DNA of 64,000 nucleotides from a virus, in the IMG/VR virus record IMGVR_UViG_3300042402_005830, positions 1-64,000 of that record; one strand, 5' to 3'. Below, piece after piece: positions 5,658-64,000 of the stretch. The notes beneath the pieces are model-generated. The model was not told the DNA's origin and made no database searches. It worked only from the letters and a program-made list of their open reading frames with translations. Numbering within the stretch: the first letter of the stretch is position 1; each line of letters begins with the position of its first letter. Made by a program: the position numbers and the translations under genes.

Positions 5658-5668
5658 ATATTAAAAAG

Positions 5669-11093: not shown

Positions 11094-11147
11094 AACTTAA
11101 GTATAATAAAAAAACCCCATACCGTCAAATAGGTAAGGGGTTCGAAG

Positions 11148-11538
11148 TGGAGGCGGGGTGACTCGAACACCCGTCCCAAATATCTCAAACAGAGAGTACT
11201 ACACGTTTAGGTCATTATTGGTTCTCAATAATCCGAAATATCTGAATTCTCACACCGTTCAGCCACGGTGGTAACTCTTTAAGAGGAGTCACACCCTTTG
11301 GTTATTAAGAGAACCACCCTTCTGCGGACTTCTGTTCATAGGTTATATGTCCTGACCGACCCGATGGTCACGGAGCCTTAGGCTGCGTAAACCTCTTCAG
11401 ACTGAAGGAGACCAACAGACTGAAGTTTTGCGAAAGTTTCGCCGTTTGTCTTTTGAAACCATAGATTATAGTGATAGATTTCGTCTCACTACGTGCACTC
11501 TGTGCCTGACCATACCGGTCAAATCCAAAAACGCCCCC
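11148..11538 (-). ncRNA. ssrA: tmRNA; tag (A)GETFAKLQSVGLLQSEEVYAA* at 11443-11378
   Basis: 5' GGGGGCG / 3' CGCCTCCA acceptor with G3-U70; GGATTTGAC 5' motif; TTCGAG T-loop; tag ending YAA; promoter upstream and terminator hairpin downstream. Confidence 0.93.
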
Positions 11539-47022: not shown

Positions 47023-47629
47023 TTAATATATTATTTTTATAATAATTTATAAACTCTTCCAAAGAGTAAATCTTTTTATCGTGTTCAAAAGAGGAGTTCT
47101 GTTCATTTGAGAATAAAACCATGTGTTTCATCCATTTTTTATACTCTTTTATAAGAGCAGTATTACAAGTTACCAACACATCGATGTCTTTAAAGATTTT
47201 ATCAATTGTTTTGTTATTATAGAAAATAACCTCTTCAATCTCACATCCAAACTTGGATAAGAAAAAGAGTGTTGACGGTTTTGATTTACCGAACTCGTCA
47301 GAAACAATTACAATTTCATTTTCATCTCTTAATTCCTTATAAATCTTATCCAAACTTACAAAGGTGTTCATCTCTGTTGAAGGAGCGTGACCAAAAATTG
47401 TCATAGGATTTTCAACATATATAAAATCATAAAGTTCCTCATCAGATTTAAATTTAAAGTGATCTTTGATAATTTCAGTATTGATTGGCCTTACAATCTC
47501 ATACTTGAAATCATCGGACACCTCTTCCTCCCCAACCTCCAACTCTTCAATCATCAACTTCTCGTAAGTAGATTCCAATTTTTTAATGGTGTCCCGAAGA
47601 ACACCATTTACCTCAAACGCTATTCTCAT
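47015..47629 (-). CDS. HAD-like 5'(3')-nucleotidase-like protein with degenerate motif I
   Basis: MRIAFEVNGVLRD (DxD replaced by ExN). Confidence 0.55.
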   Translation of the reverse strand: MRIAFEVNGVLRDTIKKLESTYEKLMIEELEVGEEEVSDDFKYEIVRPINTEIIKDHFKFKSDEELYDFIYVENPMTIFGHAPSTEMNTFVSLDKIYKELRDENEIVIVSDEFGKSKPSTLFFLSKFGCEIEEVIFYNNKTIDKIFKDIDVLVTCNTALIKEYKKWMKHMVLFSNEQNSSFEHDKKIYSLEEFINYYKNNILNV

Positions 47630-48342
47630 TGTTCGTATTTATCCAATATTTTATTGATGAGAGGATTACGGATAATATCTTTATTATCAAAACTAAAAAC
47701 ACCTATATCTTCAACATCCTTAAATTTCATAAGTGCATCATAAAGACCTGAATGTGTTTTGTCTTTATATCTATCTGTTTGTTCCAAGTCACCTGAAATG
47801 AAGAATTTACTATTAAAACCAATTCTTGTCAAAAGAAGTTTCATTTGTTTTGGAGTTGCGTTTTGGCCTTCTTCAAATATCAAAATAGAATTATCAATAT
47901 TCATTCCCCTCATATAAGCCAACGCAAATACCTCAATAATCTCAACTTCCTTTAGTTTTTCTCTTGCTTCCTTTCCAATGATTTTATTCATAAGATAGTA
48001 ACTTGGAAAAATGTATGGATCCAACTTCTCCTCTACATTACCCGGAAGTGATCCGAGTTTTTCTTCTGCCTCAACGGCGGGTCTTACAATAATAATTTTT
48101 TCATAACCGTTTTCAGGATCACATAAAAGATCAATTGCTGCTCTCATGGCAACAAACGACTTACCAACACCTGCAGGACCCGAACAGATTGTAATCTGAT
48201 TCTTACAAAGAATATCATAATATTCCTTTTGTGAATCAGTTAAAAACTTTTTTCGTTGTCTTTTAGTTACAATAGAATTTATTAAATCCTTTTTATTAAC
48301 ATAAACTTCTCTTGGTTTAACTTCCTCTTTTTTTCTTTGCAT
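47626..48342 (-). CDS. phoH: PhoH family ATPase
   Basis: GPAGVGKS, RPAVEAEEKLGSLPG, AYMRG, LLTRIG, GDLEQTD. Confidence 0.93.
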   Translation of the reverse strand: MQRKKEEVKPREVYVNKKDLINSIVTKRQRKKFLTDSQKEYYDILCKNQITICSGPAGVGKSFVAMRAAIDLLCDPENGYEKIIIVRPAVEAEEKLGSLPGNVEEKLDPYIFPSYYLMNKIIGKEAREKLKEVEIIEVFALAYMRGMNIDNSILIFEEGQNATPKQMKLLLTRIGFNSKFFISGDLEQTDRYKDKTHSGLYDALMKFKDVEDIGVFSFDNKDIIRNPLINKILDKYEQ

Positions 48343-48350
48343 TTTTTTAA

Positions 48351-48920
48351 TTATATACCTGTTGATCCAAACCCGTTAGAATTTCTATCTTTTTCGGTTA
48401 AATCATCCACTTTATTAAGACTAACAGAATCTCCATTTACAACAGGTGTAACAACCGCTTGAGCGATTTTCATACCTTTGTGAATGTTGATATCCATAGT
48501 GCTTGTATTATATATTATAACCTTTATTTCACCATTGTAACCAGAATCAACAGTTCCTGGTGAATTTAAGACAAAAAGACCTTTATTTAAGGCAAGACCA
48601 CTTTTAGACCTGACTTGAATTTCATATCCATACGGGATGTCAAAAAATAATCCTGTTGAAACAATTGTTCGTGTTCCTGCAGGAATTGTAGTTTCTTGAT
48701 TGGATAAAAGATCAAAACCTGAGTCACTACCATAATGGTATGTTGGATCAGGATTATCAGACTTGTTGACGAATGAAAGGTTCATCTTGGGTCTATAATT
48801 TTTCATTTGTTCTTCCAAATGACCCAAAGTCTCATTGATTTTACTTTGGTCGGATGACATATCCATCAAATCTTTAAGTACCGACATTGTACTCGTAAAG
48901 TTTTTTAAATCTTTTATCAT
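48351..48920 (-). CDS. dut: trimeric dUTPase
   Basis: SGFDL, KSGLA, GTVDSGYNGE, KIAQ, RNSNGFGSTG. Confidence 0.95.
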   Translation of the reverse strand: MIKDLKNFTSTMSVLKDLMDMSSDQSKINETLGHLEEQMKNYRPKMNLSFVNKSDNPDPTYHYGSDSGFDLLSNQETTIPAGTRTIVSTGLFFDIPYGYEIQVRSKSGLALNKGLFVLNSPGTVDSGYNGEIKVIIYNTSTMDINIHKGMKIAQAVVTPVVNGDSVSLNKVDDLTEKDRNSNGFGSTGI

Positions 48921-49621
48921 TTTAATTCAAATATTTTTTTAATTATATGAGCAAGAGCAACAGTATCTTTTTCACAATACTCTGAAATTACATCCAACTT
49001 CTTTGTTTTGTAATAGAATTCGTTCAAGTTTTCACCCGAAACTTCCATTTCTTTTGGAGATTCAATTCCCATACTTACACACAAAAGATCTAATGAACCA
49101 ATAGAATATGGGTTGTTATAGTTCCACAGGTCTTTTGTATCAATTGCTTTTACCTCCCAAGGTTTGGTATTATAGATTGGAAAAATTTTGGGTGGTTTCA
49201 TATCATTTATGACAAATCTTTTCCCAAGAGTTGGGATGTCAAATAATTTAATATTGTGACCACACATGTAGAAATCCAATCGTTCAATACGGTTGAAAAG
49301 AGTTCTGATTTCTTTCAATAATTCAACCTCGTCATGGTTTGAAAAAGTGGTTCTATGTAACTCACCTTTTGTATCATAAAAACAAAAGGAAGCGGCAACC
49401 ACCCTTGAAAATTCAGGAACCAACGCTGCCCTTTTGAAATATCTTTCTTCAGGGGTGATGTCCCCATCTTCAGGGTACCTCCTTTTGAAAAAATCAATAT
49501 AATCGAAAAATACCTTATGTAACTTCGGTTTTTTCTCTTCTAACTCTTTAAGAGTTTCAAATTCTGAAACTGTTTCAATATCAAAAAACAGAATCTTGTC
49601 GAGGGGTTTATCTAATGTCAT
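48917..49621 (-). CDS. DnaQ-like 3'-5' exonuclease (PolB-exo2 type)
   Basis: FFDIET, GHNIKLFDIP, YCEKD. Confidence 0.88.
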   Translation of the reverse strand: MTLDKPLDKILFFDIETVSEFETLKELEEKKPKLHKVFFDYIDFFKRRYPEDGDITPEERYFKRAALVPEFSRVVAASFCFYDTKGELHRTTFSNHDEVELLKEIRTLFNRIERLDFYMCGHNIKLFDIPTLGKRFVINDMKPPKIFPIYNTKPWEVKAIDTKDLWNYNNPYSIGSLDLLCVSMGIESPKEMEVSGENLNEFYYKTKKLDVISEYCEKDTVALAHIIKKIFELK

Positions 49622-50832
49622 ATTGAATTATAGAAATTTCTACGGTTTTCGGAAAGTACCCTCAAGTGGTATTTTGAACTTACGGTTTCATAAAGTTGTT
49701 CTCCCAAGTCTTCAACCCAACTTGGATTTTCGATCAATTTTTTCATGAATTTACTCCAATCTTTATGATTTTTGTATTCATCAACAAGTAAACCATTTGC
49801 TCCTTTTACAAAATTACCTTGATCAAGACCGTGTTTAATATCAATCGTATATGGTCCGATGTTAGATGCAATAATTGCTTTTTTATAGAAACCAGCCTCA
49901 ATAACTTTTAATTGTGATTTCATACGATTGAACATGGTATTTTTGATCGGCGCCAAAGAAATATCAAACTTACTATAGTTTTTAGCATATGATGTAACAG
50001 GTGCTGTCCAAACTCTTGTATAAAACGGATCAGGTTCTCCTGTATATTCTTCTTGTTTCCACTTTGTGAGAAATTCTCTTTGCTTGTCGGAAACAAACTT
50101 ATAGTTTGAGGTGAATATCTTTTCGTATTTAGCCCAAACAGTTTCTTCAGGTAGAATTGGTCTTTGTGTTTGTTTCCCCGTTGATTTATCAATTTCTGTA
50201 ACAGTACCACGAGTATCAAACCCACAGATATAAAGACGATACTTATCTCTTAATTCTGAAATCTTGTCAAAAGTACCTTCCAAAAGCATCAAATCATGAA
50301 GGTGGGAAGATCCTCCCAACCATCCGAAACGAAGTTTATCTGAAGGAAGGGTTGGTTCTTTGAATTGTGGTTCTTCGGGGTCAATACCATTTGCAATAAC
50401 ATGAACGTTCTTATTGACAGTTTTTCTGATTTCATTTGCGAACAAATCAGTAGTTGTTATGACCCATTCCGCAGCTCTCAAGTTATTAACGATAAGTTGA
50501 TCGAACTTACGTTCTACAACCATTGCATGAGCAGGATGTTCCATACCAGGCATCCAATAGTCGTCAATATCACAAACAGTTTTGATTCCCATATCTTTAA
50601 GTTTGAGAATCATTTGTCTTGACCCTTCATAATCGGTGTTCAAACTTCTATGAAAGGAAACAATATCGTAATTTTTAAAGAAATTAATATCATTAATATT
50701 GATATCATACATAATATCAATATGAAACTCGTCAGGGTATTGTTGTTGTAGATAAGTGTGGGGTTGAACCGATCTGAATTTACCAACACCGGTACGGTCA
50801 CTTGGAAGGACTAAAATTCGTTTTTTTGACAT
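49618..50832 (-). CDS. GT-B (GT4-like) glycosyltransferase
   Basis: DIDDYW, GWLGGSSH, DISLAP...FN.MKSQLKVIEAG. Confidence 0.85.
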   Translation of the reverse strand: MSKKRILVLPSDRTGVGKFRSVQPHTYLQQQYPDEFHIDIMYDININDINFFKNYDIVSFHRSLNTDYEGSRQMILKLKDMGIKTVCDIDDYWMPGMEHPAHAMVVERKFDQLIVNNLRAAEWVITTTDLFANEIRKTVNKNVHVIANGIDPEEPQFKEPTLPSDKLRFGWLGGSSHLHDLMLLEGTFDKISELRDKYRLYICGFDTRGTVTEIDKSTGKQTQRPILPEETVWAKYEKIFTSNYKFVSDKQREFLTKWKQEEYTGEPDPFYTRVWTAPVTSYAKNYSKFDISLAPIKNTMFNRMKSQLKVIEAGFYKKAIIASNIGPYTIDIKHGLDQGNFVKGANGLLVDEYKNHKDWSKFMKKLIENPSWVEDLGEQLYETVSSKYHLRVLSENRRNFYNSI

Positions 50833-52112: not shown

Positions 52113-52563
52113 AATTTATTAATTTTTTTATTTTATTTATTTCTTTATTAATTTTGGCAGGACCAAACTGATCTGATTTACTTTGATTCGGTTCTCTACC
52201 CATCAACGGACTTTCAGGTTTCAAATCAGTTTCGGGTTTTGTTGTTTTTTGAACTTCTTTGTTTTTACCATCTTGATCTCTCATGTTTTGCAAAGTTTGA
52301 ACAACCCACCTTTCCATTGGTTCTCCACCATGAAGTTCATATGAAATTCCTTCTTTTGGATTTGTTTTAAACCAATTTTGCCACCTTTCCAAATTTTGGA
52401 ATGTAATTATTTTTCTTTTTACCAAATCTAAATTTCTTTTCCACCCTTGAGTTTGGGATAATTCTTCTTTTGACTTACCCGCACCCAACTTTTGTTTCTC
52501 TTTCAAGAGGTTCAAAAGTTCATTTGGAACTCTAATCTGTTTTCCGTATAGGGATTTGTTCAT
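52102..52563 (-). CDS. hypothetical protein
   Basis: 153-aa ORF. Confidence 0.7.
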   Translation of the reverse strand: MNKSLYGKQIRVPNELLNLLKEKQKLGAGKSKEELSQTQGWKRNLDLVKRKIITFQNLERWQNWFKTNPKEGISYELHGGEPMERWVVQTLQNMRDQDGKNKEVQKTTKPETDLKPESPLMGREPNQSKSDQFGPAKINKEINKIKKLINYGS

Positions 52564-53306
52564 AGATTTTTGACGAGTTTTAAAAGTTCGGAAACCGACA
52601 AACCTTCTTTTTTTGCCATCTTTTTCAAAGACTTGATATTTCTTTGAAGTATTTTTGAGGTTTTGGATTCTTTATCGTTCAAATCATGATCTTTTGCTGA
52701 TTTTTGAACCAAAATATCTTCAACCATTTTTATTGCTTTTTGTCTTTGTTCTTCTTGAATTTCTTTTTCTTTCAAAACACCTCTCATAACAAAGTTTTTA
52801 TCTCCTTTATATGGTGATTTTTCATCCATGGATTCCTTTTTTCCAAACTGTTCTGCTCTATCCACCGCGTCATCCACGTCCATCCCTAATTTGTCTTCCA
52901 AATACTCTATGGTTTCTTCTGCGTCCATAAATTTTGTTTCTTCATATCCAAACGCATCTTTAAAATTCACTTCCTTTAATGTCGGTGAGAAATACGCCCC
53001 AAAAGCTCTGAATCCTCTTGATAGTGGGTCATTTGTTATCCTTGCACTTGGAACGGTTTGGTCCATAGTTTTTCTTGGGTGGAGTTTTGGATTGAGACCA
53101 AACGGAATTTTTGAACTATTCATAGTTCCATCAAAATCAACCAACTCATCCAACTCACCCTTTTCAGTTTTATTTAATTTTGACAAATATTGTTTGTGAG
53201 TTTTACATGGCATGAAGATGTCTCCGTGTTTGTGAGTACCTTCACAACCCAACTCTTCGGACTTTTTTTCCGCGGTTTTCTCGAGTTTATAACCCTTAAG
53301 TTTCAT
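52560..53306 (-). CDS. hypothetical late protein with an N-terminal CxxxHxH...PCxxH motif
   Basis: LGCEGTHKHG..FMPCKTH; TATTTAT at 53319-53325. Confidence 0.7.
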   Translation of the reverse strand: MKLKGYKLEKTAEKKSEELGCEGTHKHGDIFMPCKTHKQYLSKLNKTEKGELDELVDFDGTMNSSKIPFGLNPKLHPRKTMDQTVPSARITNDPLSRGFRAFGAYFSPTLKEVNFKDAFGYEETKFMDAEETIEYLEDKLGMDVDDAVDRAEQFGKKESMDEKSPYKGDKNFVMRGVLKEKEIQEEQRQKAIKMVEDILVQKSAKDHDLNDKESKTSKILQRNIKSLKKMAKKEGLSVSELLKLVKNL

Positions 53307-53360
53307 TAAGTTTTTACTATAAATACAAGGTTAGATGTATTTATTTTAAAAAAACGATCC

Positions 53361-55523
53361 GTGGGAATTCAAAATATTAGAAATCATTCCAACAACGCAA
53401 TTAAAGTAAGATTGGATACTTCACAGTATTACGATTTTTACTTATCTAATGATGAAATCGAGTTCGACCAAGAGACCGTTTTTTCCACTAATTTAATTGG
53501 TTTTGACGATGGTTCGGTTTTACCTGTTAATATCAGATTATGGGACAACGACTGTTCACCACAATTAGAATTAAATTATGGTGATTTCAACAGTGATAAT
53601 AATATAGTTTCAGATAAATTTTATCCATTTGATGATCTACAAGAAAGTGAATGTTACACTTTAACAGGAATTTGTGATGTTGGATTAACCGGTATTGACA
53701 ATGGTCTGACAGATAGAATGACAGGCGAAACACTTTACCATACCAAAGGTTTATTAGAAAGTATAAATAAATTTGATAGATTAACATACGACAGGCTGCT
53801 TAAGTTGATTTCTGTTACATCAAACGTAAGATCCCCCAACACAAGATTTTCAGGTCTGACTGCAGATACCGTGTATAATATAGTGTCCAAAAATTCTTCA
53901 GATTTTGGATACTATCAAGAATTATATGGTGGTTTTTATCAAGGATTCTACAAACTGCATGAATATGATTGGCAAATTCTTCCGGAAAGATATGAATTAG
54001 GATGGACTTTAGAAACCGTTATAAGACCTAGAATATACGATGAATTTACCCCGAATAATGGGCAAACAACATTGAACCAAATTTATCCTGAGAACGCAGG
54101 TATTTTCTTTTTCATGGGTACAAGGGCTGAAGATAAATTTTATCATTATGCATCAGGTCATCCTGAAAATTATACAGCATATACGAGGGTCACTGAAAAT
54201 TTAGATTGTTTAAAAACTTGTTCATGTAGTCAAACTGGATTTACCTCTGATTGTTATAATGTTTATCCAATTTCGGGTAATACATTTCAGGGAACTGACT
54301 GTACCGTTTGTGGGAACGCATGTGAACATAAGGTAGTGGCTATTCCACCAAAAAACCCAACAATAGATGTATTATCTAACTCATTTGCAATAAGGTTGTC
54401 TGGTGATCCAAAAAACCCCAAAATTAATATTAGAACAATAACAATTACAGGTGCTTGTCAAACAACAGCCGATTGTAGTAATAACGAATATTATTTGACC
54501 GGATATTCAATCAATAACATATATTCGAATATAGGTATTTACGATTTTTGTTCGGGAAGTACAAATCAAACTGATTTTTTGAATACAGAAAAGTGGTTAC
54601 AAATTGATGTATCATTCAAACGATATACTTTTTATGAGGGGTGTGATCTTTTTTATGAGGGGGGTATTGGTGAGATGAGTTCATTGATTTATCCCGCAAC
54701 AGAAAGAAATGACACTTTAAGTTTAATAAGACCACCTTTTACTCACGATGAAGAAGTAGAATATCCAGTTCAAAGAGTGGTTATGAATCGAGATTTTATT
54801 GATTCCAAAGATAAAAGGCTTGGGACATTAAAAGTATTTTTAAATGGGTATTTGTTTATGGTGGTAGAAAATTTCGAAGAAATAATTCCAAGACCTTTGG
54901 ATACTGAAAAAGAAAAACAAATAGGGGTAAGTTATTCTATGTCTTGGGGTGGTGGAACTCAAGGGTTAAGAGAAAATTTGACATTTAACTCCTGTACTGG
55001 AACCACTTACCAACAAGATCCTGAACTTTTTCCAGACACAGTTTTATCATCTACAACATTGTCTGGAATTTCTACCGGAATTTTGATGGAAAAATATTTT
55101 GGAGGAACATTTGATGGTGCCTTATCTGAATTTAGATTTTATGCTCAACCTTTGAATGGTGGACAAATTCAACATAACAATAGAATATTGAAAGGGATAT
55201 ATAATTTATTTGATTATTTTTGTTTGAATTGTGGTGAATTTGAACCAGCCCCTACACCCACACCATCTACACCGGTTACCGCAACACCAACACCAACAAT
55301 TACACCGACCATCACTTTAACACCTTCTATTACACCTACTATAACAGTAACACCTTCAATTACACCAACGGTGACTGTAACCCCTGGTCTTACTCCTACG
55401 GCACAACCAACACCTTCAGTCACACCAACTCTCACCACAACACCAAGCATTACCCCTACTGTTTCGAGATCACCAGGTAATACAGGTATAAAAACAATTT
55501 TTGTTCGATTTAATAATCTTTGA
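53361..55523 (+). CDS. Cys-rich putative virion protein with a LamG-like segment and a mucin-like C-terminal tail
   Basis: LKVFLNG...GTFDGALSEFRFY..PL....IQHN; Thr/Pro repeats; TATTTAT at 53338. Confidence 0.7.
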   Translation: MGIQNIRNHSNNAIKVRLDTSQYYDFYLSNDEIEFDQETVFSTNLIGFDDGSVLPVNIRLWDNDCSPQLELNYGDFNSDNNIVSDKFYPFDDLQESECYTLTGICDVGLTGIDNGLTDRMTGETLYHTKGLLESINKFDRLTYDRLLKLISVTSNVRSPNTRFSGLTADTVYNIVSKNSSDFGYYQELYGGFYQGFYKLHEYDWQILPERYELGWTLETVIRPRIYDEFTPNNGQTTLNQIYPENAGIFFFMGTRAEDKFYHYASGHPENYTAYTRVTENLDCLKTCSCSQTGFTSDCYNVYPISGNTFQGTDCTVCGNACEHKVVAIPPKNPTIDVLSNSFAIRLSGDPKNPKINIRTITITGACQTTADCSNNEYYLTGYSINNIYSNIGIYDFCSGSTNQTDFLNTEKWLQIDVSFKRYTFYEGCDLFYEGGIGEMSSLIYPATERNDTLSLIRPPFTHDEEVEYPVQRVVMNRDFIDSKDKRLGTLKVFLNGYLFMVVENFEEIIPRPLDTEKEKQIGVSYSMSWGGGTQGLRENLTFNSCTGTTYQQDPELFPDTVLSSTTLSGISTGILMEKYFGGTFDGALSEFRFYAQPLNGGQIQHNNRILKGIYNLFDYFCLNCGEFEPAPTPTPSTPVTATPTPTITPTITLTPSITPTITVTPSITPTVTVTPGLTPTAQPTPSVTPTLTTTPSITPTVSRSPGNTGIKTIFVRFNNL
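55245..55475 (+). repeat. mucin-like Thr/Pro tandem repeat (about 10-aa unit TPSITPTITV)
   Basis: PAPTPTPSTPVTATPTPTITPTITLTPSITPTITVTPSITPTVTVTPGLTPTAQPTPSVTPTLTTTPSITPTVSRSP; degenerate codons. Confidence 0.9.
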
Positions 55524-56743
55524 TAATGAAAAATGAATCTTTACATCAATCAATTGAACAATTAAAGGTCGAATACGATAATGAATCAATTTGTTTGGGA
55601 AAAAAAATAAAAAATGGTGTTGTAACTGACGAATTATCTGTGGTTTTTTTCGTCGATGAAAAAAAACCAATTGAACTTCTTTCATCATCAGAATTAATAC
55701 CTAGTAGAGTTAATTTGAATGGGACAATTTTGAAAACAGATATTGTTGAATCTTTTGTTGCAAATACAAACCCATGTCCTACTGAATTTAATACAAATTG
55801 TATTTTTAATCCTGTTCCTAACAGGTCATACATTCGACCAATTGTGGGTGGTATTTCAATCAGAAAAACCACAGATGGTATAGGTACTCTTGGTTTTATG
55901 GCGAAACATTCTGAAACAGGATCTCTAGTTGGGGTTACCAATTTACATGTTGCAATGAAAACTCATTATTTGGCATCAACACTTTGTAAGACACCCCCAT
56001 GTTCTTTCAATTATAATTCTTTAGTTGAGCAAATTTATCAACCAGGTGAAAGTTCTTCTTATGAAACTGATTTTTATAACTTAGGTAGAGTTATGTATTG
56101 TTATTTATTACCTTCAACTAGCGCTGAAATAGATTGTTGTTTGGTTGCTTTGAAGGAAAGTGTCACCTCAAACTCTCAATCATATAAACAGTATGGATTA
56201 GATTTCACATACGCTCCTATTTTTGCAACAACTGCGGAAATTGACTCGATCTTAACAAATAATATTCCTTTAGCCGCGTCAGGTCGTTCATCAGGACCCA
56301 AACAAGGAAGTCTTTGTGGTTTGAAGGCATTGTACTCCAATTTTTCTACAAGTGTTCAAGGGTACAGAAAAAATAACGATGGTAAAATTTGGATTCACCC
56401 ATTTCGAAATCAAATTGCGTTCACAAGAGTTAATGAAAGTTGCCCCGACCCTTCTATTCCGGGTGATTCAGGATCAGGGGTTTTTGGATTTTTTAATGGT
56501 GTATGGAAATTAGTGGGTTTGAATTTTGCCGGTGGTACATTAGGAAGTGGTATAGAAGTTGGTATATTTAATCGAATTGATAAAGTTGCGGAATTGATGG
56601 GTATTGAACCTTGGAATGGTAGTCCCACAAGTTTTTTAAATTTGAATAACATAGATACTTACGAAATTCAAGGATTTGATTCTCAACGAACAATTACTGT
56701 TAATGGACAAACTTATTGGCAATCTGGATTAGTAGAAAATTAA
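55520..56743 (+). CDS. trypsin-like (PA clan, Nal1-like) serine protease
   Basis: GTLG, TNLHVA (His), EIDCCLV (Asp), PGDSGS (Ser), VGLNFAG. Confidence 0.8.
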   Translation: MIMKNESLHQSIEQLKVEYDNESICLGKKIKNGVVTDELSVVFFVDEKKPIELLSSSELIPSRVNLNGTILKTDIVESFVANTNPCPTEFNTNCIFNPVPNRSYIRPIVGGISIRKTTDGIGTLGFMAKHSETGSLVGVTNLHVAMKTHYLASTLCKTPPCSFNYNSLVEQIYQPGESSSYETDFYNLGRVMYCYLLPSTSAEIDCCLVALKESVTSNSQSYKQYGLDFTYAPIFATTAEIDSILTNNIPLAASGRSSGPKQGSLCGLKALYSNFSTSVQGYRKNNDGKIWIHPFRNQIAFTRVNESCPDPSIPGDSGSGVFGFFNGVWKLVGLNFAGGTLGSGIEVGIFNRIDKVAELMGIEPWNGSPTSFLNLNNIDTYEIQGFDSQRTITVNGQTYWQSGLVEN

Positions 56744-56805
56744 CCTTTACGATGGGTGAATTTTTTTTATGATTTACGTAAAATAAAATTCAATTCCATA
56801 ATTAA

Positions 56806-58050
56806 GTGACCATATTTGTTCAAATAGCCTCTTATAGAGACCCTGAGTTAGAAAAAACAATCAAGAATATGATTGAAATGGCGGATCGACCCGATAAATT
56901 GAGGTTCGGAATCGCAAGACAATATAGTGAAGAAGATGGATTCGATAAATTAGAAGAATATAGAGAAGATACAAGATTCAGAATTCTCGACATTCCTTAT
57001 AATGAATCAAACGGTGCTTGTTGGGCGAGACACCTTATTCAACAACTCTACAAAAATGAAACTTATACCCTTCAAATCGACTCCCACATGAGGTTCGAGA
57101 AAAGTTGGGATATAACTCTAATTGACATGATTGATCAACTTAAAGAGGATGGTCATGAAAAACCACTTTTGACTGGTTATGTAAGTTCGTTTGATCCCGA
57201 TAATGATCCGGCAGGAAGAGCAAGAGACCCTTGGAGGATGACTTTTGATAGATTTATACCTGAAGGAGCTGTATTTTTCTTACCCGAAACAATTCCGAAT
57301 TGGAATGATTTGGATAAACCAGTACCTGCTAGATTTTATTCAGCTCACTTCTGTTTTACTCTTGGACAGTTCTCTAAAGAGGTGCAACACGATCCTGAAT
57401 ATTATTTTCACGGAGAAGAAATCAGTATTGCCGCAAGGGCGTACACACATGGATACGACTTATTTCACCCACACAGAGTTGTTATTTATCACGAATATAC
57501 AAGAAAAGGTAGAACCAAACAGTGGGATGATGATAAGAAGTGGGTTGAAAAGAATAACCGTAGTCACCAAAAAAATAGACAATTGTTTGGAATGGATGGT
57601 GAAGAACAGATTGATTTTGGAGATTTTGGATTTGGAAAAGTTAGAACTTTAAGAGATTACGAAAGATATTCGGGTCTCCTATTTAGTCAAAGATCCGTAC
57701 AAAAATATACTTTAGATAAAGAATACCCACCAAATCCAAATGATTTTGAAACCGAAGAAGATTGGATAAACTCATTTACAAAACAATTTAAACATTGTAT
57801 TGATATCGGTTATGATCGAGTTCCTGAAAAAGATTATGACTTTTGGGTGGTTGCATTTCATGACCACAATGATGAGACCATATTTAGAAAAGATGCGGAT
57901 AAACACGAAATTCAAGGTTTTTTCCGAGATCCTGATGGATATTGTAAAGTTTGGAGAACTTTTAATGCGGAACAAAAACCAGCATATTGGGTTGTATGGC
58001 CACACTCTGAAAGTAAGGGTTGGGGTGAAAGAATGACCGGTAATTTATAA
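56806..58050 (+). CDS. GT60 polypeptide alpha-GlcNAc transferase (Gnt1/Gnt2-like)
   Basis: TIFVQIASYRDPE, GACWAR, LQIDSHMRF, FHGEEI..AARAYTHGYDLFHP. Confidence 0.85.
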   Translation: MTIFVQIASYRDPELEKTIKNMIEMADRPDKLRFGIARQYSEEDGFDKLEEYREDTRFRILDIPYNESNGACWARHLIQQLYKNETYTLQIDSHMRFEKSWDITLIDMIDQLKEDGHEKPLLTGYVSSFDPDNDPAGRARDPWRMTFDRFIPEGAVFFLPETIPNWNDLDKPVPARFYSAHFCFTLGQFSKEVQHDPEYYFHGEEISIAARAYTHGYDLFHPHRVVIYHEYTRKGRTKQWDDDKKWVEKNNRSHQKNRQLFGMDGEEQIDFGDFGFGKVRTLRDYERYSGLLFSQRSVQKYTLDKEYPPNPNDFETEEDWINSFTKQFKHCIDIGYDRVPEKDYDFWVVAFHDHNDETIFRKDADKHEIQGFFRDPDGYCKVWRTFNAEQKPAYWVVWPHSESKGWGERMTGNL

Positions 58051-58067
58051 ATAAAAAAAATAAAATC

Positions 58068-58703
58068 ATGATAACAAAATGGAATTATAATAACCACGGG
58101 GAATTTAGACCCTATGTAAAGGACTTAATTTCTAAAAATAATTACACATCAATTGATATTGGTGCGTCCGCAAGATATTGGTCCTATCCTGAATGTAAAG
58201 TAGTTGTAGATACATATCCGGTTCATGAAAAAGATACATTATTTTTTGATATAAACATTGAAGATATCGAACAATGGGATAAAATATTTGAATATGTGAA
58301 TCAACATGGAAAATTTGATTTTTCAATATGTTCACATACTATGGAAGATGTCTTTAATCCTATAGAATTATCTAAAATTTTAGAAAAAATTTCAAAAAGG
58401 GGTTATATTGCAATACCATCAAAATATAATGAATTTACCAAACTGTTTTCTAATAAATACAGAGGTGATGCACATCACAAACAGTTTTTTGATGTTTTTG
58501 ACAACCAGTTAATTGTTTATCCAAAATTTAATTGGATTGAAACAGATGAAAGAAGTGATTTGATTTTAAAAAATTATGTAGCAAATGAATTAACTTTGTT
58601 TTGGGAGGAAAAAATACCAATCAAAGTTTTTGGTAATGGTAAACCCTATATTGGAGATGATAATTTAATTAACGCTTATTATAACCAACTAATAATTAAA
58701 TAA
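58068..58703 (+). CDS. class I SAM-dependent methyltransferase
   Basis: IDIGAS, FDFSICSHTMED. Confidence 0.75.
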   Translation: MITKWNYNNHGEFRPYVKDLISKNNYTSIDIGASARYWSYPECKVVVDTYPVHEKDTLFFDINIEDIEQWDKIFEYVNQHGKFDFSICSHTMEDVFNPIELSKILEKISKRGYIAIPSKYNEFTKLFSNKYRGDAHHKQFFDVFDNQLIVYPKFNWIETDERSDLILKNYVANELTLFWEEKIPIKVFGNGKPYIGDDNLINAYYNQLIIK

Positions 58704-59530
58704 TGATCGAAATTTACAATGAATATGATCATCACTTACAGGGTGGTCATTTTTCCTCCTATAAAAAGAATTTGGGAAATAAATTATTCATCTATGCCAC
58801 TTGTAAAATAATTTCGGATTCATTGGATTATAATCTAATATTACCTGATAAGTCATTTATAAGACGAGAAACACAAAAAACAAATCAATATATAGTTGAT
58901 GAGTTTCCTTTTGGAAGTATTACTAATAAAAAGTCTGTTGATTGTTGCCCAATTGTGATCGATGATGATACTTTTATTTCTTATGGGAGTATTGAAAATT
59001 TTATAAAAAAAATAGACAATAATAAAATATTATCAACAGGGTACTATAGTAAATATGAATATATTAAACCGTATAAAAATGAGGTACGAAATTTTTATAA
59101 AAAGTTAGTAAAAGAAAAGAGAAATAACAATGACATAATTATGATGCTGAGAAATAGTCGAGATGATGCTAGATTTGTAATTGATGATGAATATTATTTG
59201 ACTATCCTTGAAAATGAAGAATTTGAAAATTTATATGTATCAATTGACCATACATATCAGCACAGTAGTATTTTAAAAAAAATTGAAAAGTATAATCCAA
59301 AATTTATTGACGGTGGAATTATCGATGTTTTTAGTGAAATTACAAGTTTTAATAGAATAATCGCTTGTCAGGGAACATTTTCATTTTGGGCTTGTTTTCT
59401 GTCCAACGCTGAAAAAATTTATTGGCCATTGACTAAAGATGGACCAAACTCGAATAATCTATCTCATGGTAAACATTTAAATTTGATCGTTGATGATGAA
59501 TCAAGATATGAATTTATTAAATTAAAATAA
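58703..59530 (+). CDS. GT11-like alpha-1,2-fucosyltransferase
   Basis: NLGNKLFIYA and IIACQGTFSFWACFLS motifs. Confidence 0.7.
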   Translation: MIEIYNEYDHHLQGGHFSSYKKNLGNKLFIYATCKIISDSLDYNLILPDKSFIRRETQKTNQYIVDEFPFGSITNKKSVDCCPIVIDDDTFISYGSIENFIKKIDNNKILSTGYYSKYEYIKPYKNEVRNFYKKLVKEKRNNNDIIMMLRNSRDDARFVIDDEYYLTILENEEFENLYVSIDHTYQHSSILKKIEKYNPKFIDGGIIDVFSEITSFNRIIACQGTFSFWACFLSNAEKIYWPLTKDGPNSNNLSHGKHLNLIVDDESRYEFIKLK

Positions 59531-59543
59531 AACTTGTACAAAA

Positions 59544-60542
59544 ATGAAAACAATTAAAGTGTCTAGAGCAAATTTTCCAGGAGTTGGAAATTTCTCGTGG
59601 TTAAATTTTTTTGTTAAAATCCTCTCCAAAAAATACAATGTGGTTATTGATTCTAAAAATCCTGATATTGTAATTTACACTAACCAATTTTATAGAGAAG
59701 GGGAATTAGATTATTACACAAAAGATACAATCAAAAGTGAAACGGAATATGGTCCAAAAGTTAAAAAAATATTTTTGAGTGGGGAGGCGAGACCTGATTT
59801 TAACTCTCATTTAAATAAAGGAGAAAATTATTATTGTATGGGTTATGAACATCTAACCCACGATAGATATCTCAGATTTCCTACATATGTTTTGGATGCG
59901 TTTGTTTTACATAATGAAGGTGGAATGTTTGATAGTGATTTTGGTTGGCTAACAGAAAAACGAGATTCACAAAATATTTTAAATGGGAAAAAACATTTTT
60001 GTAGTATTGTTCAATCGAGTCATAATGTGGATAGGGAAAAGTTATTCGATGAAATCATAAAAAAACATTGGATTAAATCTTCGGGACCTTGGAGACAAAC
60101 AATCAATAACTCTGAAGTCTTAAATCCACATCAATACCATAATTATTCAAATCCTGATTATATGGGTAAAATCGATGGACTAACTTACCGAGATAAAATT
60201 AAATTCTTTTCTGATTGTGTATTTAACATATCATATCAGTACACAGATACTGATTATTTAACACAAGAAAAAATTATTCATGCTTACGCATCCGATTCCA
60301 TACCAATTTTTTATGGAAATAAATTTATCGAAGAAGAAGGATTTAATCCTAATTCTTTTGTAAACGCACATAAATTTGAGACAATTGAATCTTTAGTAAT
60401 TTATTTAGATGAGTTATATCAGGATAGAAATAAACTAACAAAATTTTTCGAAGAACCTATTTTTATCGATAATAAATTACCAATTTATTTCAATGAAGAG
60501 TACGTTTTAGAATTTTTAGATAAAATAATTAGCGAAAATTAA
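59544..60542 (+). CDS. GT10-like alpha-1,3/4-fucosyltransferase
   Basis: PD, IF.SGE, RFP, KKHFCS, KIKF...F.ISYQ....YLTQEKIIHA....IPIFYG. Confidence 0.8.
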   Translation: MKTIKVSRANFPGVGNFSWLNFFVKILSKKYNVVIDSKNPDIVIYTNQFYREGELDYYTKDTIKSETEYGPKVKKIFLSGEARPDFNSHLNKGENYYCMGYEHLTHDRYLRFPTYVLDAFVLHNEGGMFDSDFGWLTEKRDSQNILNGKKHFCSIVQSSHNVDREKLFDEIIKKHWIKSSGPWRQTINNSEVLNPHQYHNYSNPDYMGKIDGLTYRDKIKFFSDCVFNISYQYTDTDYLTQEKIIHAYASDSIPIFYGNKFIEEEGFNPNSFVNAHKFETIESLVIYLDELYQDRNKLTKFFEEPIFIDNKLPIYFNEEYVLEFLDKIISEN

Positions 60543-60637
60543 TTAAAACACTTTTTATATTGACAAACAAATATTGGAAAAGTTTTATAAAAAAATATCT
60601 ATAAAAGTGTCTTACTAAAAATTATTATTTATTAATT

Positions 60638-61318
60638 ATGGATAAATTTATTTCATATTCTCTTTTTGGTCGTGATTTAAAATATTTCATTGGTGCCGAA
60701 AAAAACATAATGATTAATGAACAATTATTACCGGATTGGAAAACAGTTATTTATTATCACCCTGAAATGATTTTAGATGGTTATTTGGAAAAACTTAATT
60801 CGTTAGGGGCGATTCTAATTGATGTTAAAGACGTTAAAATTGGAAACAAATCCTCATTAGAATTCCCGTATTTCTGGAGATATTTAACATTTCTGAAAGA
60901 TGGAATTCATCTGTCTAGAGATTTAGACAGTAGGATATCAAATAGGGAGGTTGAGTACATAAAACGTTGGGAAAAAAGTCAGAATAAATACTCAATTATC
61001 AGAGATCACCCCTGGCATGCACCAGTACCTAGTGGGTTATTTGGTATTAAAGGTAAAGACAGAAATTTTGAATCTCATTTTCATGAATACATTGAAACAA
61101 ACAATTTAGTGTGGGGAACAGACCAAGATATACTATACAAATACATACAAAAAATAGATAAGTCAGATATATTTTACTCTGGATTTGATAAACCAGAAAC
61201 TTACATACCAAGAGACAATCAAGAATTTTTCATCGGAATACAACTCGATGAAAACGACAACCCAACCAAACCAAGTGGTGAAGAATGCCTAAGATATCTT
61301 AAGGAATTAAATTTATAA
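60638..61318 (+). CDS. putative GT-A glycosyltransferase
   Basis: ISYSLFG, FWRYL, SRDLDSR (DxD), RDHPWH, DQ. Confidence 0.6.
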   Translation: MDKFISYSLFGRDLKYFIGAEKNIMINEQLLPDWKTVIYYHPEMILDGYLEKLNSLGAILIDVKDVKIGNKSSLEFPYFWRYLTFLKDGIHLSRDLDSRISNREVEYIKRWEKSQNKYSIIRDHPWHAPVPSGLFGIKGKDRNFESHFHEYIETNNLVWGTDQDILYKYIQKIDKSDIFYSGFDKPETYIPRDNQEFFIGIQLDENDNPTKPSGEECLRYLKELNL

Positions 61319-61332
61319 AAATAAAAAATATC

Positions 61333-62076
61333 ATGAGATATTGTTTTACAACATTAGCGGTAAATGAACCTTACGAAAGTAAGACACAAGAATTCTATAA
61401 AGAACTACGAGAAAAAACAACTCAATGTAATTTTTTCATAACATCTACAAATAAAGATCTACTTAACCAAGGAGAAAGAATTCACACTAAAATAATTGAT
61501 CCCCCATCTATGTTTTGTTCAGGTGGTGGATTTGATTTTCATTTAAATTTGAAATGTTTGTCCTTAAAACATGTTTTGGAGTATGAAAAATCAAATCAAA
61601 ACATTCATCACGAATATGTGATTTTTACAGATGGTGATTGGGGAGTTTGGGAGGGGTTTGATGAGAAAAAAATATTGTACATGTTGGATTACATGGAGCA
61701 AAATAATATCGATTGTTTGTTCGAAAGACCTGCACCGATCGGAATACATAAAAAAAATCCAAACGAAAGTTTTTTCAGGGATAAACTATATGATTATGAT
61801 GTTTTTGATCATGATAAATGGGATGATGCACACTGTGTGAATGAGCAGATACTTGTCATGAAAAATAATGAAAAATTTAAATTTTTTGTACAAAGGTGGG
61901 AACAGTTCTTATGGTATAGTATTGCAAATGATATTAGAAATTATCCAGATGGTTTCGAAATAGGGATTTCTATTCACGAATCAGGTATGAAATATTCATA
62001 TGATGGGATTTTAAGGTTAATGAGTGATTGTTTTTACTTTCATACAAAAACCGGTGATTTCCACACAAGATTTTAA
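61333..62076 (+). CDS. putative GT-A glycosyltransferase
   Basis: FTTLA N-terminus, K...L, VIFTDGD (DxD); operon context. Confidence 0.55.
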   Translation: MRYCFTTLAVNEPYESKTQEFYKELREKTTQCNFFITSTNKDLLNQGERIHTKIIDPPSMFCSGGGFDFHLNLKCLSLKHVLEYEKSNQNIHHEYVIFTDGDWGVWEGFDEKKILYMLDYMEQNNIDCLFERPAPIGIHKKNPNESFFRDKLYDYDVFDHDKWDDAHCVNEQILVMKNNEKFKFFVQRWEQFLWYSIANDIRNYPDGFEIGISIHESGMKYSYDGILRLMSDCFYFHTKTGDFHTRF

Positions 62077-62104
62077 AAAATTAATAATTTAAAAAACTAA
62101 TTTA

Positions 62105-63025
62105 ATGAAAACTAAAATAGTCACAGCTTACTGGATGGACGTTGAAGGTTACCCATTCCAAGGTACAAGAAGTTCTTTAAAACCAAGATATTTGGGATCA
62201 CTGATCAGTCACTGCAAAGGAATTAACTTTCCTATTATATGTTATACACACAGTAAAAATTATGAAGAACTCCTCCAACTAAAACATTCATATCAACTTA
62301 GTAATTTAGAAATAAAACTGTTCGAACTTAGTGAAATGAAGTTTCATAAAGAAATATCGAAAATAAGAGACGTAAATTTCGATACGGATTTAAGTGGTAG
62401 AGGTCCTGAAATCATGTGGGGAAAATTTGAGGTTATGGAAAAGGAATTAGATAATTGCGATCGACTTTATTGGATAGATTGTGGATTACAACATCCTGGA
62501 ATTTTCCCTTGGATGTACTGCGTTCCATATGGTGATATCGAATACCACAGAGGTGGTGTACCTGTTTGGGTTAACAATGAAATTAGTCAATATGATTTCA
62601 CAAAATTATTTAATACCAAAATTTTTGAAATTTTAAATAAAAAAACAGAAAACAAGGTCTTCAATATCACATCAACAAACCCTCAAATTGGTTATAAACT
62701 TCATTCTTTATCAATCGATGTTCCACCAATATATCCGCCTTATCCTATAGGTGGAATGATAGGTGGTGATTCTGCAAAATTACGGGTTTATCTGAATACT
62801 TTTTGGAACGTTTGTTCAAAGGTTTTGGAAAAAAATTACCTCTGCACCGAAGAAGAATTAATGAAGCCCACTTTTGATATTTGTTCGGATATCATGATAG
62901 ATTACCAATTCTCAGTTTATCAAACAAATGAACAAGATGATTTTCATTTTAATGTTTGGAGTGAAAAAAGTAATAAACCAAAACCTCTTTATATGGTTTG
63001 GAATGATATTTTAAGTGAAGAATGA
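62105..63025 (+). CDS. HtrL/YibB (WlaTC)-like glycosyltransferase
   Basis: TKIVTAYW, YWIDCGL, IGGMIGG, TEE. Confidence 0.65.
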   Translation: MKTKIVTAYWMDVEGYPFQGTRSSLKPRYLGSLISHCKGINFPIICYTHSKNYEELLQLKHSYQLSNLEIKLFELSEMKFHKEISKIRDVNFDTDLSGRGPEIMWGKFEVMEKELDNCDRLYWIDCGLQHPGIFPWMYCVPYGDIEYHRGGVPVWVNNEISQYDFTKLFNTKIFEILNKKTENKVFNITSTNPQIGYKLHSLSIDVPPIYPPYPIGGMIGGDSAKLRVYLNTFWNVCSKVLEKNYLCTEEELMKPTFDICSDIMIDYQFSVYQTNEQDDFHFNVWSEKSNKPKPLYMVWNDILSEE

Positions 63026-63888
63026 AATCTTATATTATTGGAGGATTCAACGCTGGATTGGGAAGTACCTACGACACATTATACCGATTTGTTGTTTTAC
63101 AAAGTTTTTTAAAAAATTTAGGTTACGAAGTTTTCTGTGAGGTTGATTTTTCACTTAATCCGTATAAAATGAACAATCAGGATAGATCTATTTTTAAAAA
63201 AATATTTAAATTTGATTTATTAGATAATATATTGTTTCATGTTGGGGACGGTTTCAATATGCATGACACCGCAAATTTCGAATTAAATAAAAAAACAAAA
63301 TTAGTTTTCAATAATAACAAAATTTTATATGTTTATGTGGATTCACCAATTACTGAACTTAAAAATATCGAACAATTCATAAATTGGCAAAATAGAGATG
63401 ATCTTCCAAAAATTTGTTGTCTTGTTGATGAATTGATTTATAAGTTTGAAGAAAAGTTAACTGATATTTCGAATACTGAATTTTACTCCATTCACTACCG
63501 ACCCTTTGAGTTGGAAAATCAAAAAAAACAAATGGATATTCACCTACCTCAAATAATAGATATATTGGAAAAAAACAGAGATAAAAAAATTTTATTAACC
63601 ACTCAATATGAAATTTTGAAAAAAAAATTATCATTAAGTAATTATGATAATTTACAAATGTCCAACTATCAATATCCAACCGACTTCAATAAAGTAAGAT
63701 CTTTGGGTTGGACCGATGAACAATTGTTAGATTATATGCAAGAAACTTTTTTCGAAATGTACTGTTTGTCAAAATCTACCAAAATTTACAGGGTTGGTTG
63801 CCCTTGGTTTTCTAATTTTCTTTTTTTATCTTGTACATATAATCAAACAAATTTTGAAAATAAATTAAGATTTGAACCATCATATTAA
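63022..63888 (+). CDS. NodZ/O-fucosyltransferase-like (GT23/65-type) protein
   Basis: AGLGS N-motif, YSIHYR, EMYCLSKS..IY...SNF. Confidence 0.55.
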   Translation: MKSYIIGGFNAGLGSTYDTLYRFVVLQSFLKNLGYEVFCEVDFSLNPYKMNNQDRSIFKKIFKFDLLDNILFHVGDGFNMHDTANFELNKKTKLVFNNNKILYVYVDSPITELKNIEQFINWQNRDDLPKICCLVDELIYKFEEKLTDISNTEFYSIHYRPFELENQKKQMDIHLPQIIDILEKNRDKKILLTTQYEILKKKLSLSNYDNLQMSNYQYPTDFNKVRSLGWTDEQLLDYMQETFFEMYCLSKSTKIYRVGCPWFSNFLFLSCTYNQTNFENKLRFEPSY

Positions 63889-63893
63889 AAGAA

Positions 63894-64000
63894 ATGAAAA
63901 ATACAACATTAGTTACTGGTTTATGGGATATTGGTAGAGAAAGTTTGACTGACGGATGGAATAGAAAATTCGATGAACATTATTTAAATAATTTCAAAAA
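63894..64000 (+). CDS. HtrL/YibB-like glycosyltransferase, partial
   Basis: MKNTTLVTGLWDIGRESL..GW.R.F...YL. Confidence 0.6.
   Translation, partial: MKNTTLVTGLWDIGRESLTDGWNRKFDEHYLNNFK

Follow-up and report, generated by a model that had tools for sequence, protein, structure and literature searches.

The DNA analysed here is a window of 64,000 nucleotides from a virus, corresponding to bases 1-64000 of the 75,725-bp IMG/VR contig IMGVR_UViG_3300042402_005830 (window base n is contig base n). From position 53361 onwards it carries an array of genes in which a GT60 glycosyltransferase and several other putative glycosyltransferases (GTs) are encoded alongside a protein with a Thr/Pro-repeat tract, and the array continues past the window into the remainder of the contig. 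All of the genes between 53361 and 75554 are on the + strand with intergenic gaps of 96 nt or less. A previous reading of the sequence alone had proposed that this region encodes a mucin-type O-glycosylation system acting on virion proteins, and the positions of the open reading frames (ORFs) on which it was based were all confirmed. For comparison, IMG/VR was scanned for GT60 genes, giving 158 contigs of which 80 (66-89% identity) were kept; these are the 80 related loci referred to throughout. The genes of the cluster are as follows.

53361-55523, + strand: 720-aa protein with a TATTTAT motif upstream and a C-terminal Thr/Pro tract
55520-56743, + strand: probable chymotrypsin-fold serine protease, accessory (phrog_20754; TNLHV and GDSGSG motifs)
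56806-58050, + strand: GT60 glycosyltransferase, soluble; proposed initiating polypeptide N-acetylhexosamine (HexNAc) transferase (PF11397 and phrog_24687)
58068-58703, + strand: possible methyltransferase, variable cassette (Methyltransf_23, E=0.066; 7/80 loci)
58703-59530, + strand: probable glycosyltransferase with a weak GT11 assignment, variable cassette
59544-60542, + strand: GT10 alpha-1,3/4-fucosyltransferase homologue, variable cassette (8/80 loci)
60638-61318 and 61333-62076, + strand: two ORFs of 226 and 247 aa with no family assigned, variable cassette
62105-63025, + strand: HtrL-like protein, 306 aa (hhalign against the HtrL domain of the fusion below, 96.6%, E=5e-10)
63022-63888, + strand: 288-aa ORF with no family match (0/80 loci)
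63894-65573, + strand: HtrL_YibB + GT2-like fusion, 559 aa, continuing past the window end
65591-70168, + strand, beyond the window: 1525-aa protein whose N-domain is BppU-like, with TPTxT repeats over about 570 aa
70212-73787, + strand, beyond the window: 1191-aa Cys-rich protein with Thr/Pro linkers
73768-74322, + strand, beyond the window: possible methyltransferase, 184 aa
74352-75554, + strand, beyond the window: 400-aa protein with a Thr/Pro tract

The GT60 label given to 56806-58050 by the sequence-only reading is borne out by a match to PF11397 at E=1.3e-76 (258.8 bits, cut-off 21), with which a six-frame search agrees, and by a match to phrog_24687 at E=1e-169. Residues D92-S-H94, H229 and E204/E205 are invariant across 43 diverse relatives, and by analogy the D-S-H motif together with the His would constitute the GT-A metal-binding and catalytic site. 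A search of PDB sequences with the protein alone, and with the 43-sequence profile, returned no relative. The maximum KD19 value is 0.63, so that the protein has no hydrophobic segment and hence not the type II membrane topology that is a trait of the Gnt2/OGNT subgroup; its topology is instead like that of the cytoplasmic Gnt1 subgroup. To our knowledge all characterised GT60 enzymes act on polypeptides. One characterised action is the transfer of N-acetylglucosamine (GlcNAc) to a hydroxyproline of Skp1; in the other, TcOGNT-2 and DdGnt2 place alpha-GlcNAc on Thr residues of Thr-rich mucin peptides (PMC3769586), and by analogy with these enzymes the phage GT60 would be a transferase of alpha-GlcNAc to polypeptide. 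This GT60 is numerous: at 90% identity its sequences fall into more than 7,500 clusters. A public protein library also contains giant proteins (P0122-P0134 and others), as long as 2461 aa, in which between two and four GT60 domains are arranged in tandem.

Four proteins of the locus have the dense tandem Thr/Ser/Pro repeats that the mucin-type class requires. While the 720-aa protein is the sole Thr/Pro-rich ORF of the window, three more lie within 12 kb past its end, so that the four repeat ORFs of the contig are confined to 53-75.5 kb, with the stretch at 1-53 kb free of them. That most of the candidate substrates lie beyond the window end had escaped the sequence-only reading, which had correctly recognised the terminal repeats of the 720-aa protein. 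In this protein the tract spans approximately residues 626-705 (DNA ~55236-55475), includes the sequence TPSITPTITV, and follows two conserved globular modules (approximately residues 1-303 and 304-624) that are kept in 26 of the 80 loci and in the complete relatives G001 and G002. The position of the tract varies among the orthologues, being C-terminal here and between the modules in others, and at some loci the orthologue has no tract and the next ORF is repeat-rich. The repeats of the 1525-aa protein cover about 574 residues, of which 276 are Thr, 35 Ser and 105 Pro; this great excess of Thr over Ser in the tracts fits a Thr-preferring enzyme. At the DNA level the tracts consist of near-perfect tandem repeats (for example 5.7 copies of a 54-nt unit at 99% identity) and have therefore expanded recently. 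The 1525-aa and 1191-aa proteins also have in common a domain of about 185 aa (residues 895-1079 and 282-464 respectively; 33% identity, E=5e-18), encoded by L003:6274-6828 and L003:9056-9604, which recurs in the repeat proteins of G001. That proteins of this gene neighbourhood use Thr/Pro tracts as linkers in general was considered and down-weighted, because such a tract is present in just 1 of 150 GT60 proteins (54 of the 150 being long, multi-domain proteins).

Comparison of the related phage loci reveals a feature absent from the sequence-only reading, namely that GT60 has a conserved partner. GT60 is present in 80/80 loci and the HtrL-GT2 fusion in 79/80, the fusion always on the strand of GT60 and nearly always downstream, with a gap of between approximately 0 and 9.8 kb (median 1.6 kb). 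The N-domain of the 1525-aa protein (its first ~120 residues) is found at 71/80 loci and module A of the 720-aa protein at 26/80, whereas every other enzyme is present in only 0-17/80, so that a cassette of variable content is flanked by two conserved enzymes. The gene carrying the N-domain follows the fusion at a median distance of 31 nt; the domain is fused to Thr/Pro repeats in 22 loci, and in a further 5 a repeat ORF comes next. Of the 107 Thr/Pro tracts at the phage loci, 56 are no more than 1.5 kb from the core extending from GT60 to the fusion, compared with an expected 23% (p=2e-11), and 103 are co-directional with it. The proportion of repeat ORFs that bracket the core in complete relatives is 5/9 in G001 and 2/4 in G002. 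Co-occurrence of GT60 with Thr/Pro-repeat proteins across related phages had been put forward as a check on the original proposal, and it is observed both here and in bacteria.

A stronger test than the phage loci is provided by bacterial genomes, in which the GT60 profile found at least 557 copies, from which 80 loci were kept. A homologue of the HtrL-GT2 fusion adjoins GT60 in 30 of these 80, with a gap of 202 nt or less in 19 of the 30, and 19 of 27 Thr/Pro tracts are located within 1.5 kb of the core against an expected 25% (p=8e-7); a looser criterion for tracts introduced noise from high-GC off-frame ORFs. The proteins that carry the tracts come from several phyla and are not homologous to the phage repeat proteins. 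The association of GT60 with Thr/Pro proteins is thus non-random in phages and in bacteria of several phyla. Small proteins with a signal resembling that of the twin-arginine translocation (Tat) pathway followed by a long PT tract occur at delta-proteobacterial, Vicinamibacterales, gamma-proteobacterial, Acidimicrobiaceae and alpha-proteobacterial loci. In Gemmatimonadota (L127:8510-9235 and L131:9230-9955) proteins with a PqqD-like N-domain and a C-terminal Thr/Pro tail are encoded directly upstream of GT60 and HtrL-GT2, the PqqD-like (peptide-chaperone/RRE-like) identity being a putative one from reading of the sequence. At the Congregibacter/Luminiphilus loci (L163:6816-7454 and L164:6880-7476) the genes beside HtrL-GT2 and GT60 encode small proteins that combine a Tat/Sec-like signal with a PT tract and end in a hydrophobic helix and basic tail resembling an exosortase-type sorting signal. 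The closest truly bacterial locus is in a 610 kb contig (GC content 62%) of a Lewinellaceae metagenome-assembled genome (L123:7374-12887), to all appearances part of a bacterial chromosome; its GT60 is 61% identical to the phage enzyme and is grouped with HtrL-GT2, a PF13640 gene and a gene for a 584-aa protein that combines a Tat-like signal, a mucin-like region rich in Ser, Thr and Pro and a type IX secretion system (T9SS) sorting tail. These genes may together specify a mucin-like glycoprotein system of the bacterium, and may hint at an exchange of genes with the phage clade.

The Lewinellaceae locus bears on the question of which residue is modified, in that it pairs the module and a mucin-like protein with a gene of the prolyl 4-hydroxylase (P4H) type, so that glycosylation of the tracts on hydroxyproline, as in Skp1, stays in play as a minor rival, the hydroxylase in that case being supplied by the host or encoded by a phage gene that escaped detection. 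This rival is helped by the soluble, Gnt1-like rather than type II topology of the phage GT60, by the occurrence of Pro in every repeat unit, and by a PF13640 gene about 8 kb from GT60 in L163. It is nonetheless rather improbable. No PF13640 match was obtained in the contig or in the relatives G001-G004 (three of them 97-100% complete), phmmer at E<=10 found no P4H-like ORF in the phage genomes, and there was no PF13640 match in six bacterial genomes with Thr/Pro proteins beside GT60, albeit in a search that missed one weak copy. Moreover, Thr rather than Pro is the dominant and most regular residue of the tracts. Thr is the more likely acceptor, because it dominates the tracts and because no prolyl hydroxylase was found in the contig or the four relatives.

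The likely destination of the repeat proteins is indicated by the N-domain of the 1525-aa protein and by the motifs upstream of the genes. A model of the N-domain built from a 45-sequence alignment is a beta-sandwich with a predicted local distance difference test score (pLDDT) of 74.7. When compared with PDB structures it matches the NF5 baseplate (E=3e-4) and then baseplate or tail-tip components of T5, DT57C, 80alpha and TP901-1, and when compared with BFVD predicted structures it gives matches down to E=3e-10 with a template-modelling (TM) score of 0.72, many of them labelled BppU N-terminal, minor tail or tail fiber; a search of PDB sequences with the N-domain profile found no relative. 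As modelled, the N-domain folds like a BppU-type baseplate/tail domain. Both giant repeat proteins that follow the fusion in G001 (3705 and 1413 aa) begin with a BppU-like N-domain. The motif TATTTAT occurs 45 nt or less upstream of 16 of 66 genes, among them the genes for the portal, for four other proteins of the head module and for each of the four repeat proteins; under a hypergeometric distribution the probability of it preceding all four repeat genes by chance is about 0.0025. It is at -23 before the 720-aa gene, in agreement with the late motif previously noted there, and at -15, -25 and -19 before the 1525-, 1191- and 400-aa genes respectively. The divergent intergenic region 53307-53360 has TATTTAT in both directions, for 53361 (+) and for 52560-53306 (-), and looks like a bidirectional late promoter. 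From the modelled fold and the motifs we infer a virion location for the repeat proteins.

The cultured Xanthomonas jumbo phage XacN1 provides a further link to the virion. Its module has the same order as the one described here, with GT60 ORF334 (47% identity), a carbamoyltransferase, HtrL-like ORF332, ORF331 and HtrL-GT2 ORF330 (41%), and it adjoins a GT9 gene, a gene whose 3313-aa product contains a short Thr/Pro tract, and baseplate-wedge genes. It differs in having a carbamoyltransferase and GT9 cassette rather than one with GT10 and GT11-like enzymes, and in that only the one short Thr/Pro tract was seen nearby. Purified XacN1 virions contain at least two Schiff-stained glycoproteins, for which the phage's own transferases were suggested as the makers (PMC5852040). 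These data, together with the BppU-like fold, the upstream motif common to portal and head genes and the lack of signal peptides for export, argue against the repeat proteins being glycosylated but not incorporated into particles, remaining intracellular or being released at lysis as adhesins or matrix proteins, for example. We regard that possibility as distinctly unlikely, even though the 720-aa protein has no recognisable structural fold, the bacterial carriers beside the module are exported cell-surface proteins, and SprB adhesin repeats are present in the repeat proteins of a second zone in G001.

The remaining enzymes of the cluster are a mixed group, some firmly classified and others not. 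The GT10 homologue at 59544-60542 matches PF00852 (E=2e-8, 34.5 bits, above the cut-off of 23.9) and FucT_N (E=3e-5), as well as Helicobacter pylori alpha1,3-fucosyltransferase structures (2nzw, E=3.8e-13; 5zoi, E=1.4e-11) and FUT9 (E=0.004), in accord with its previous designation. The GT11-like label of 58703-59530 holds only as far as a generic glycosyltransferase, with a match to phrog_2644 'glycosyltransferase' at E=1.4e-5; the match to the GT11 family PF01531 (E=0.028, 14.1 bits) is under the cut-off of 23.9, and a PDB search gave no match. Both HtrL-like assignments stand, that of the 306-aa protein by profile-profile comparison and that of the fusion by a match to HtrL_YibB PF09612 at E=6.4e-13 (49.4 bits, cut-off 24.1), with the GT2 part at E=0.045. 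The 306-aa ORF is found in 17/80 loci and as XacN1 ORF332, and Pfam annotation is absent from its homologues; an NCBIfam search of the locus proteins added only HtrL_YibB. As to the serine protease at 55520-56743, the match to phrog_20754 'protease' (E=1.1e-11, residues 24-148 only) and the motifs favour the label and the absence of a Pfam or PDB match does not; the ORF is found in just 6/80 loci. The methyltransferase label of 58068-58703 could not be verified, the Pfam match at E=0.066 being the sole one. The same is true of the two labels of GT-A enzymes with DxD motifs, the 226-aa and 247-aa ORFs (kept in 9/80 and 10/80 loci) having no match in Pfam, PHROGs or NCBIfam; TATTTAT is present 12 nt before 60638. 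A NodZ/O-FucT identity for 63022-63888 found no support, there being no PF05830 or PF10250 match at E<=1 and no PDB match.

The sequence-only reading envisaged fucosylated and methylated glycans. Within the window the GT10 enzyme alone is firm as a basis for fucosylation, and the methyltransferase matches in this contig are sub-threshold, neither of the two small candidate ORFs having similarity to the TylF domain found in G001. In that complete relative the fusion has three domains (L202:4970-7342, equivalent to G001 186969-189341), these being a TylF sugar O-methyltransferase (PF05711, E=2e-23), HtrL_YibB and a GT2-like domain; a 1067-aa cassette ORF preceding it has weak methyltransferase and GT25 matches. 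Full-length enzymes of the GDP-mannose-4,6-dehydratase type (PF16363, E~1e-117 to 1e-124) are encoded at G001:142850-143776, G002:157879-158811 and G004:33395-34321, in G002 next to a second epimerase/dehydratase-family gene, which suggests that deoxyhexose-nucleotide supply is phage-encoded in the relatives; no enzyme of this type was found in the present 75-kb contig. The dehydratases and the G001 TylF domain fit fucosylated or deoxyhexose-containing, methylated glycans in the clade.

None of the 16 locus proteins has a signal-peptide-like or transmembrane-like segment (maximum KD19 <1.6), in keeping with the earlier observation that signal peptides are missing, and searches of the 16 with Pfam, PHROGs, NCBIfam and a transmembrane scan found no flippase (Wzx), ABC exporter, polymerase or membrane-bound initiating transferase. 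Synthesis of an O-antigen or capsule by the classical route was judged improbable on the lack of membrane components. Phage glycosyltransferases often act on DNA (reviewed in PMC12619734), and the relatives encode ThyA-family enzymes that could be hydroxymethylases, raising the question of whether hydroxymethylated bases are hypermodified here as a protection from restriction. This seems very remote. The ThyA-family genes are more than 100 kb from the cluster, which is itself situated among late, structural-type genes, and the same module is found in bacterial chromosomes beside exported Thr/Pro proteins; nor are GT60, GT10, GT11-like or HtrL enzymes among the known DNA glycosyltransferases.

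The interpretation that we favour, with confidence somewhat better than even, is that the locus specifies a phage-encoded pathway, working in the cytoplasm, that O-glycosylates the Thr/Pro tracts of virion appendage proteins expressed late. It starts from what can be observed directly, namely the gene families, their synteny and non-random adjacency, the soluble topology, the fold of the N-domain and the shared upstream motifs. GT60 is encoded among late genes for appendage-like proteins with Thr/Pro repeats, and therefore the phage probably covers its own particle with sugars. The repeat proteins (the 720-aa protein and the three beyond the window) would be made in the cytoplasm late in infection, and there the soluble GT60 would move a HexNAc, most likely alpha-GlcNAc from UDP-GlcNAc, onto Thr residues of the tracts as its protist relatives do. 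The conserved HtrL-GT2 fusion would then add the next sugar or sugars to give a core glycan, and the strain-variable cassette would cap the chain, using here the GT10 enzyme, the GT11-like transferase, the HtrL-like protein, the possible methyltransferases and the unassigned ORFs. The glycosylated proteins would join the particle, at least the 1525-aa protein doing so through its BppU-like baseplate/tail attachment domain, and the outcome would be mucin-like stalks, stiff and resistant to proteases, whose sugar surface differs from strain to strain. A role for the glycans in shielding or mimicry is speculation. The sequence-only reading had likewise placed a substrate, an initiating enzyme and extending enzymes together; the comparative adjacency supports this arrangement, although the NodZ-like member fails and the protease is confined to a few loci.

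Several observations weigh against this interpretation. Every chemical step, the acceptor residue, the presence of the proteins in virions and the biological role are inferred, and the catalytic motif of GT60 is placed by analogy because no solved relative was found. The matches of the N-domain model to PDB structures are modest (TM score ~0.5), and an AlphaFold2 prediction for the globular part of the 720-aa protein from 16 homologues gave a pLDDT of 30 and no usable fold. At about 24 loci the N-domain stands alone with no repeats downstream, and the adjacency within the phage clade is partly inherited synteny; likewise, some of the bacterial loci are related to one another. The complete relatives have a second group of repeat proteins 75-100 kb from GT60, so the link between GT60 and repeats is not exclusive. 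Thr/Pro tracts serve as plain flexible linkers in many proteins. The glycoprotein bands of XacN1 were not assigned to proteins, and two GTs were credited with them without a test (PMC5852040).

Two more such observations favour a different use of the enzymes. No Thr/Pro ORF is present within 10 kb of GT60 in 21 of the 80 phage loci, and HtrL_YibB proteins, an uncharacterised family, are otherwise known only from lipooligosaccharide (LOS) and lipopolysaccharide (LPS) loci (PMC4172580), a context that keeps alive the proposal that the product of the enzymes, newly made or modified by them, is a glycan not attached to protein. This could be an intermediate of host LPS, LOS or capsule at the cytoplasmic face of the membrane, or else an oligosaccharide in free or lipid-linked form; it would serve superinfection exclusion or host takeover, and the tracts would be unglycosylated linkers. 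Clusters for surface polysaccharides typically contain GT10, GT11, GT4 and GT9-type enzymes as well as GDP-sugar dehydratases, and LPS transferases are often soluble or peripheral, such that missing transmembrane segments do not exclude them. We nevertheless consider this proposal unlikely, given the polypeptide-directed action of characterised GT60 enzymes, the lack of a flippase, polymerase, membrane-bound initiating transferase or any transmembrane protein at the locus, the position of the module inside a late-motif, operon-like array with repeat proteins, and the glycoproteins in XacN1 virions. It also leaves unexplained the adjacency to Thr/Pro tracts on non-homologous carriers in unrelated bacteria.

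Among known systems, the closest parallels in chemistry are with protists. TcOGNT-2 and Dictyostelium Gnt2 (PMC3769586) share with the phage enzyme the PF11397 domain, the DxH/His signature and dense Thr-rich, Pro-containing repeat substrates, and there too an initiating HexNAc is extended by further transferases, as is proposed here. The phage enzyme differs from these Golgi enzymes in having no type II anchor and in that it would operate in the bacterial cytoplasm on appendage-like substrates, with an activity, donor and linkage assigned by analogy; the kinship to the characterised enzymes is through the Pfam model only. The Skp1 pathway (P4H1, Gnt1 and then fucose and galactose transferases) is similar in that a soluble cytoplasmic GT60 starts a short fucose-bearing glycan, but Gnt1 needs hydroxyproline at a single site, whereas the repeats of the phage proteins provide sites by the hundred and searches of the phage genomes revealed no prolyl hydroxylase.

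Glycosylated phage particles are known to us from very few cases, these being the mycobacteriophages and the Schiff-stained bands of XacN1. Freeman et al. reportedly described virion O-glycosylation in mycobacteriophages in 2023 (cited in PMC12619734), the targets being the C-termini of capsid and tail-tube subunits. That system resembles the one proposed here in using phage-encoded GTs, the phage's own structural proteins and terminal extensions, with a coat that varies between phages, and differs in that the present locus has long tandem Thr/Pro tracts in fibre-like or baseplate-attached proteins, plus GT60, HtrL-GT2 and GT10, which are not known to form part of the mycobacteriophage system. 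Among giant viruses, the capsid of the chlorovirus PBCV-1 (cited in PMC5852040) is similarly glycosylated in the cytoplasm, independently of the host, by virus-encoded, clustered soluble transferases, and virus-encoded sugar-nucleotide enzymes are a further likeness to the clade; these are viruses of eukaryotes, however, in which the enzymes, the linkages and the targets are different and mucin-like tandem repeats are not known to occur. The 2025 aquatic 'moraphage' lineage, considered as a possible identity of the present clade, infects Bacteroidota and has four groups of core GTs, for which only generic roles are listed (PMC12619734). No paper linking GT60 or PF11397 to phages or to bacterial Thr/Pro proteins turned up in full-text searches.

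The contig as a whole (completeness by CheckV ~25%; GC content of the window ~33%) has relatives with contigs of 290-322 kb that are rated 97-100% complete, and it is therefore a fragment of a jumbo phage. A megablast search of the region against phage records matched nothing, and the only cultured phages with this GT60 are XacN1, Xoo-sp13, CM1 and RAS14, at 44-50% identity. Other features of the window are listed below.

1336-11538, - strand: cluster of 11 tRNA genes and a transfer-messenger RNA (tmRNA) gene (tag peptide ending ...EEVYAA)
13048-15066, - strand: ClpC-type ATP-dependent protease ATPase (phrog_4871, E=3e-241)
22046-23812: large terminase (head module)
23850-25709: portal (head module)
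30358-32160: major head protein (head module)
47626-49621, - strand: PhoH (PF02562, E=9e-62), dUTPase (E=1e-25) and a PolB-exonuclease-like/RNase H-fold protein, just upstream of the GT4-like gene
49618-50832, - strand: GT4/GT1-like glycosyltransferase (sub-threshold GT4/GT1 matches, ~1e-3)

The GT4/GT1-like gene has a homologue in G001 and G002 at 58% identity and may be part of a wider glycan region. There are indirect hints of a Bacteroidota host, in that the nearest 'bacterial' GT60 copies are in Saprospiraceae, Lewinellaceae and Bacteroidia assemblies and the repeat proteins of G001 carry SprB repeats, a motif of Bacteroidota gliding-motility adhesins. These repeats (PF13573, E~3-5e-9) are in a second repeat zone of G001 at ~264-270 kb (L200:68-5620), about 85 kb from GT60.

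A broader proposal, to which we give slightly less than an even chance, is that GT60 and HtrL-GT2 form the core of a widespread and undescribed prokaryotic mucin-type O-glycosylation, present in bacteria of many phyla and in an abundant clade of freshwater jumbo phages and acting on tandem Thr/Pro tracts in the cytoplasm before export or assembly, with the hypervariable cassette and fast-evolving repeats of the phages giving each strain its own glycan-coated appendages. If so, the variable cassette and repeats would be a phage counterpart of O-antigen diversity, and the presence of the two-enzyme core beside Thr/Pro proteins in many phyla would point to an unrecognised bacterial protein-glycosylation pathway. 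The availability of XacN1 in culture makes a direct test of the idea possible, and the soluble enzymes could be of use for glycosylating simple repeat peptides in bacteria. Were the interpretation correct, abundant uncultured freshwater jumbo phages, with contigs of up to 322 kb, would routinely coat their appendages with strain-specific mucin-like glycans, using an enzyme family that had been thought a protist speciality, and this would bear on host recognition, on the stability of particles against proteases and grazers, and on the diversification of phage surfaces.

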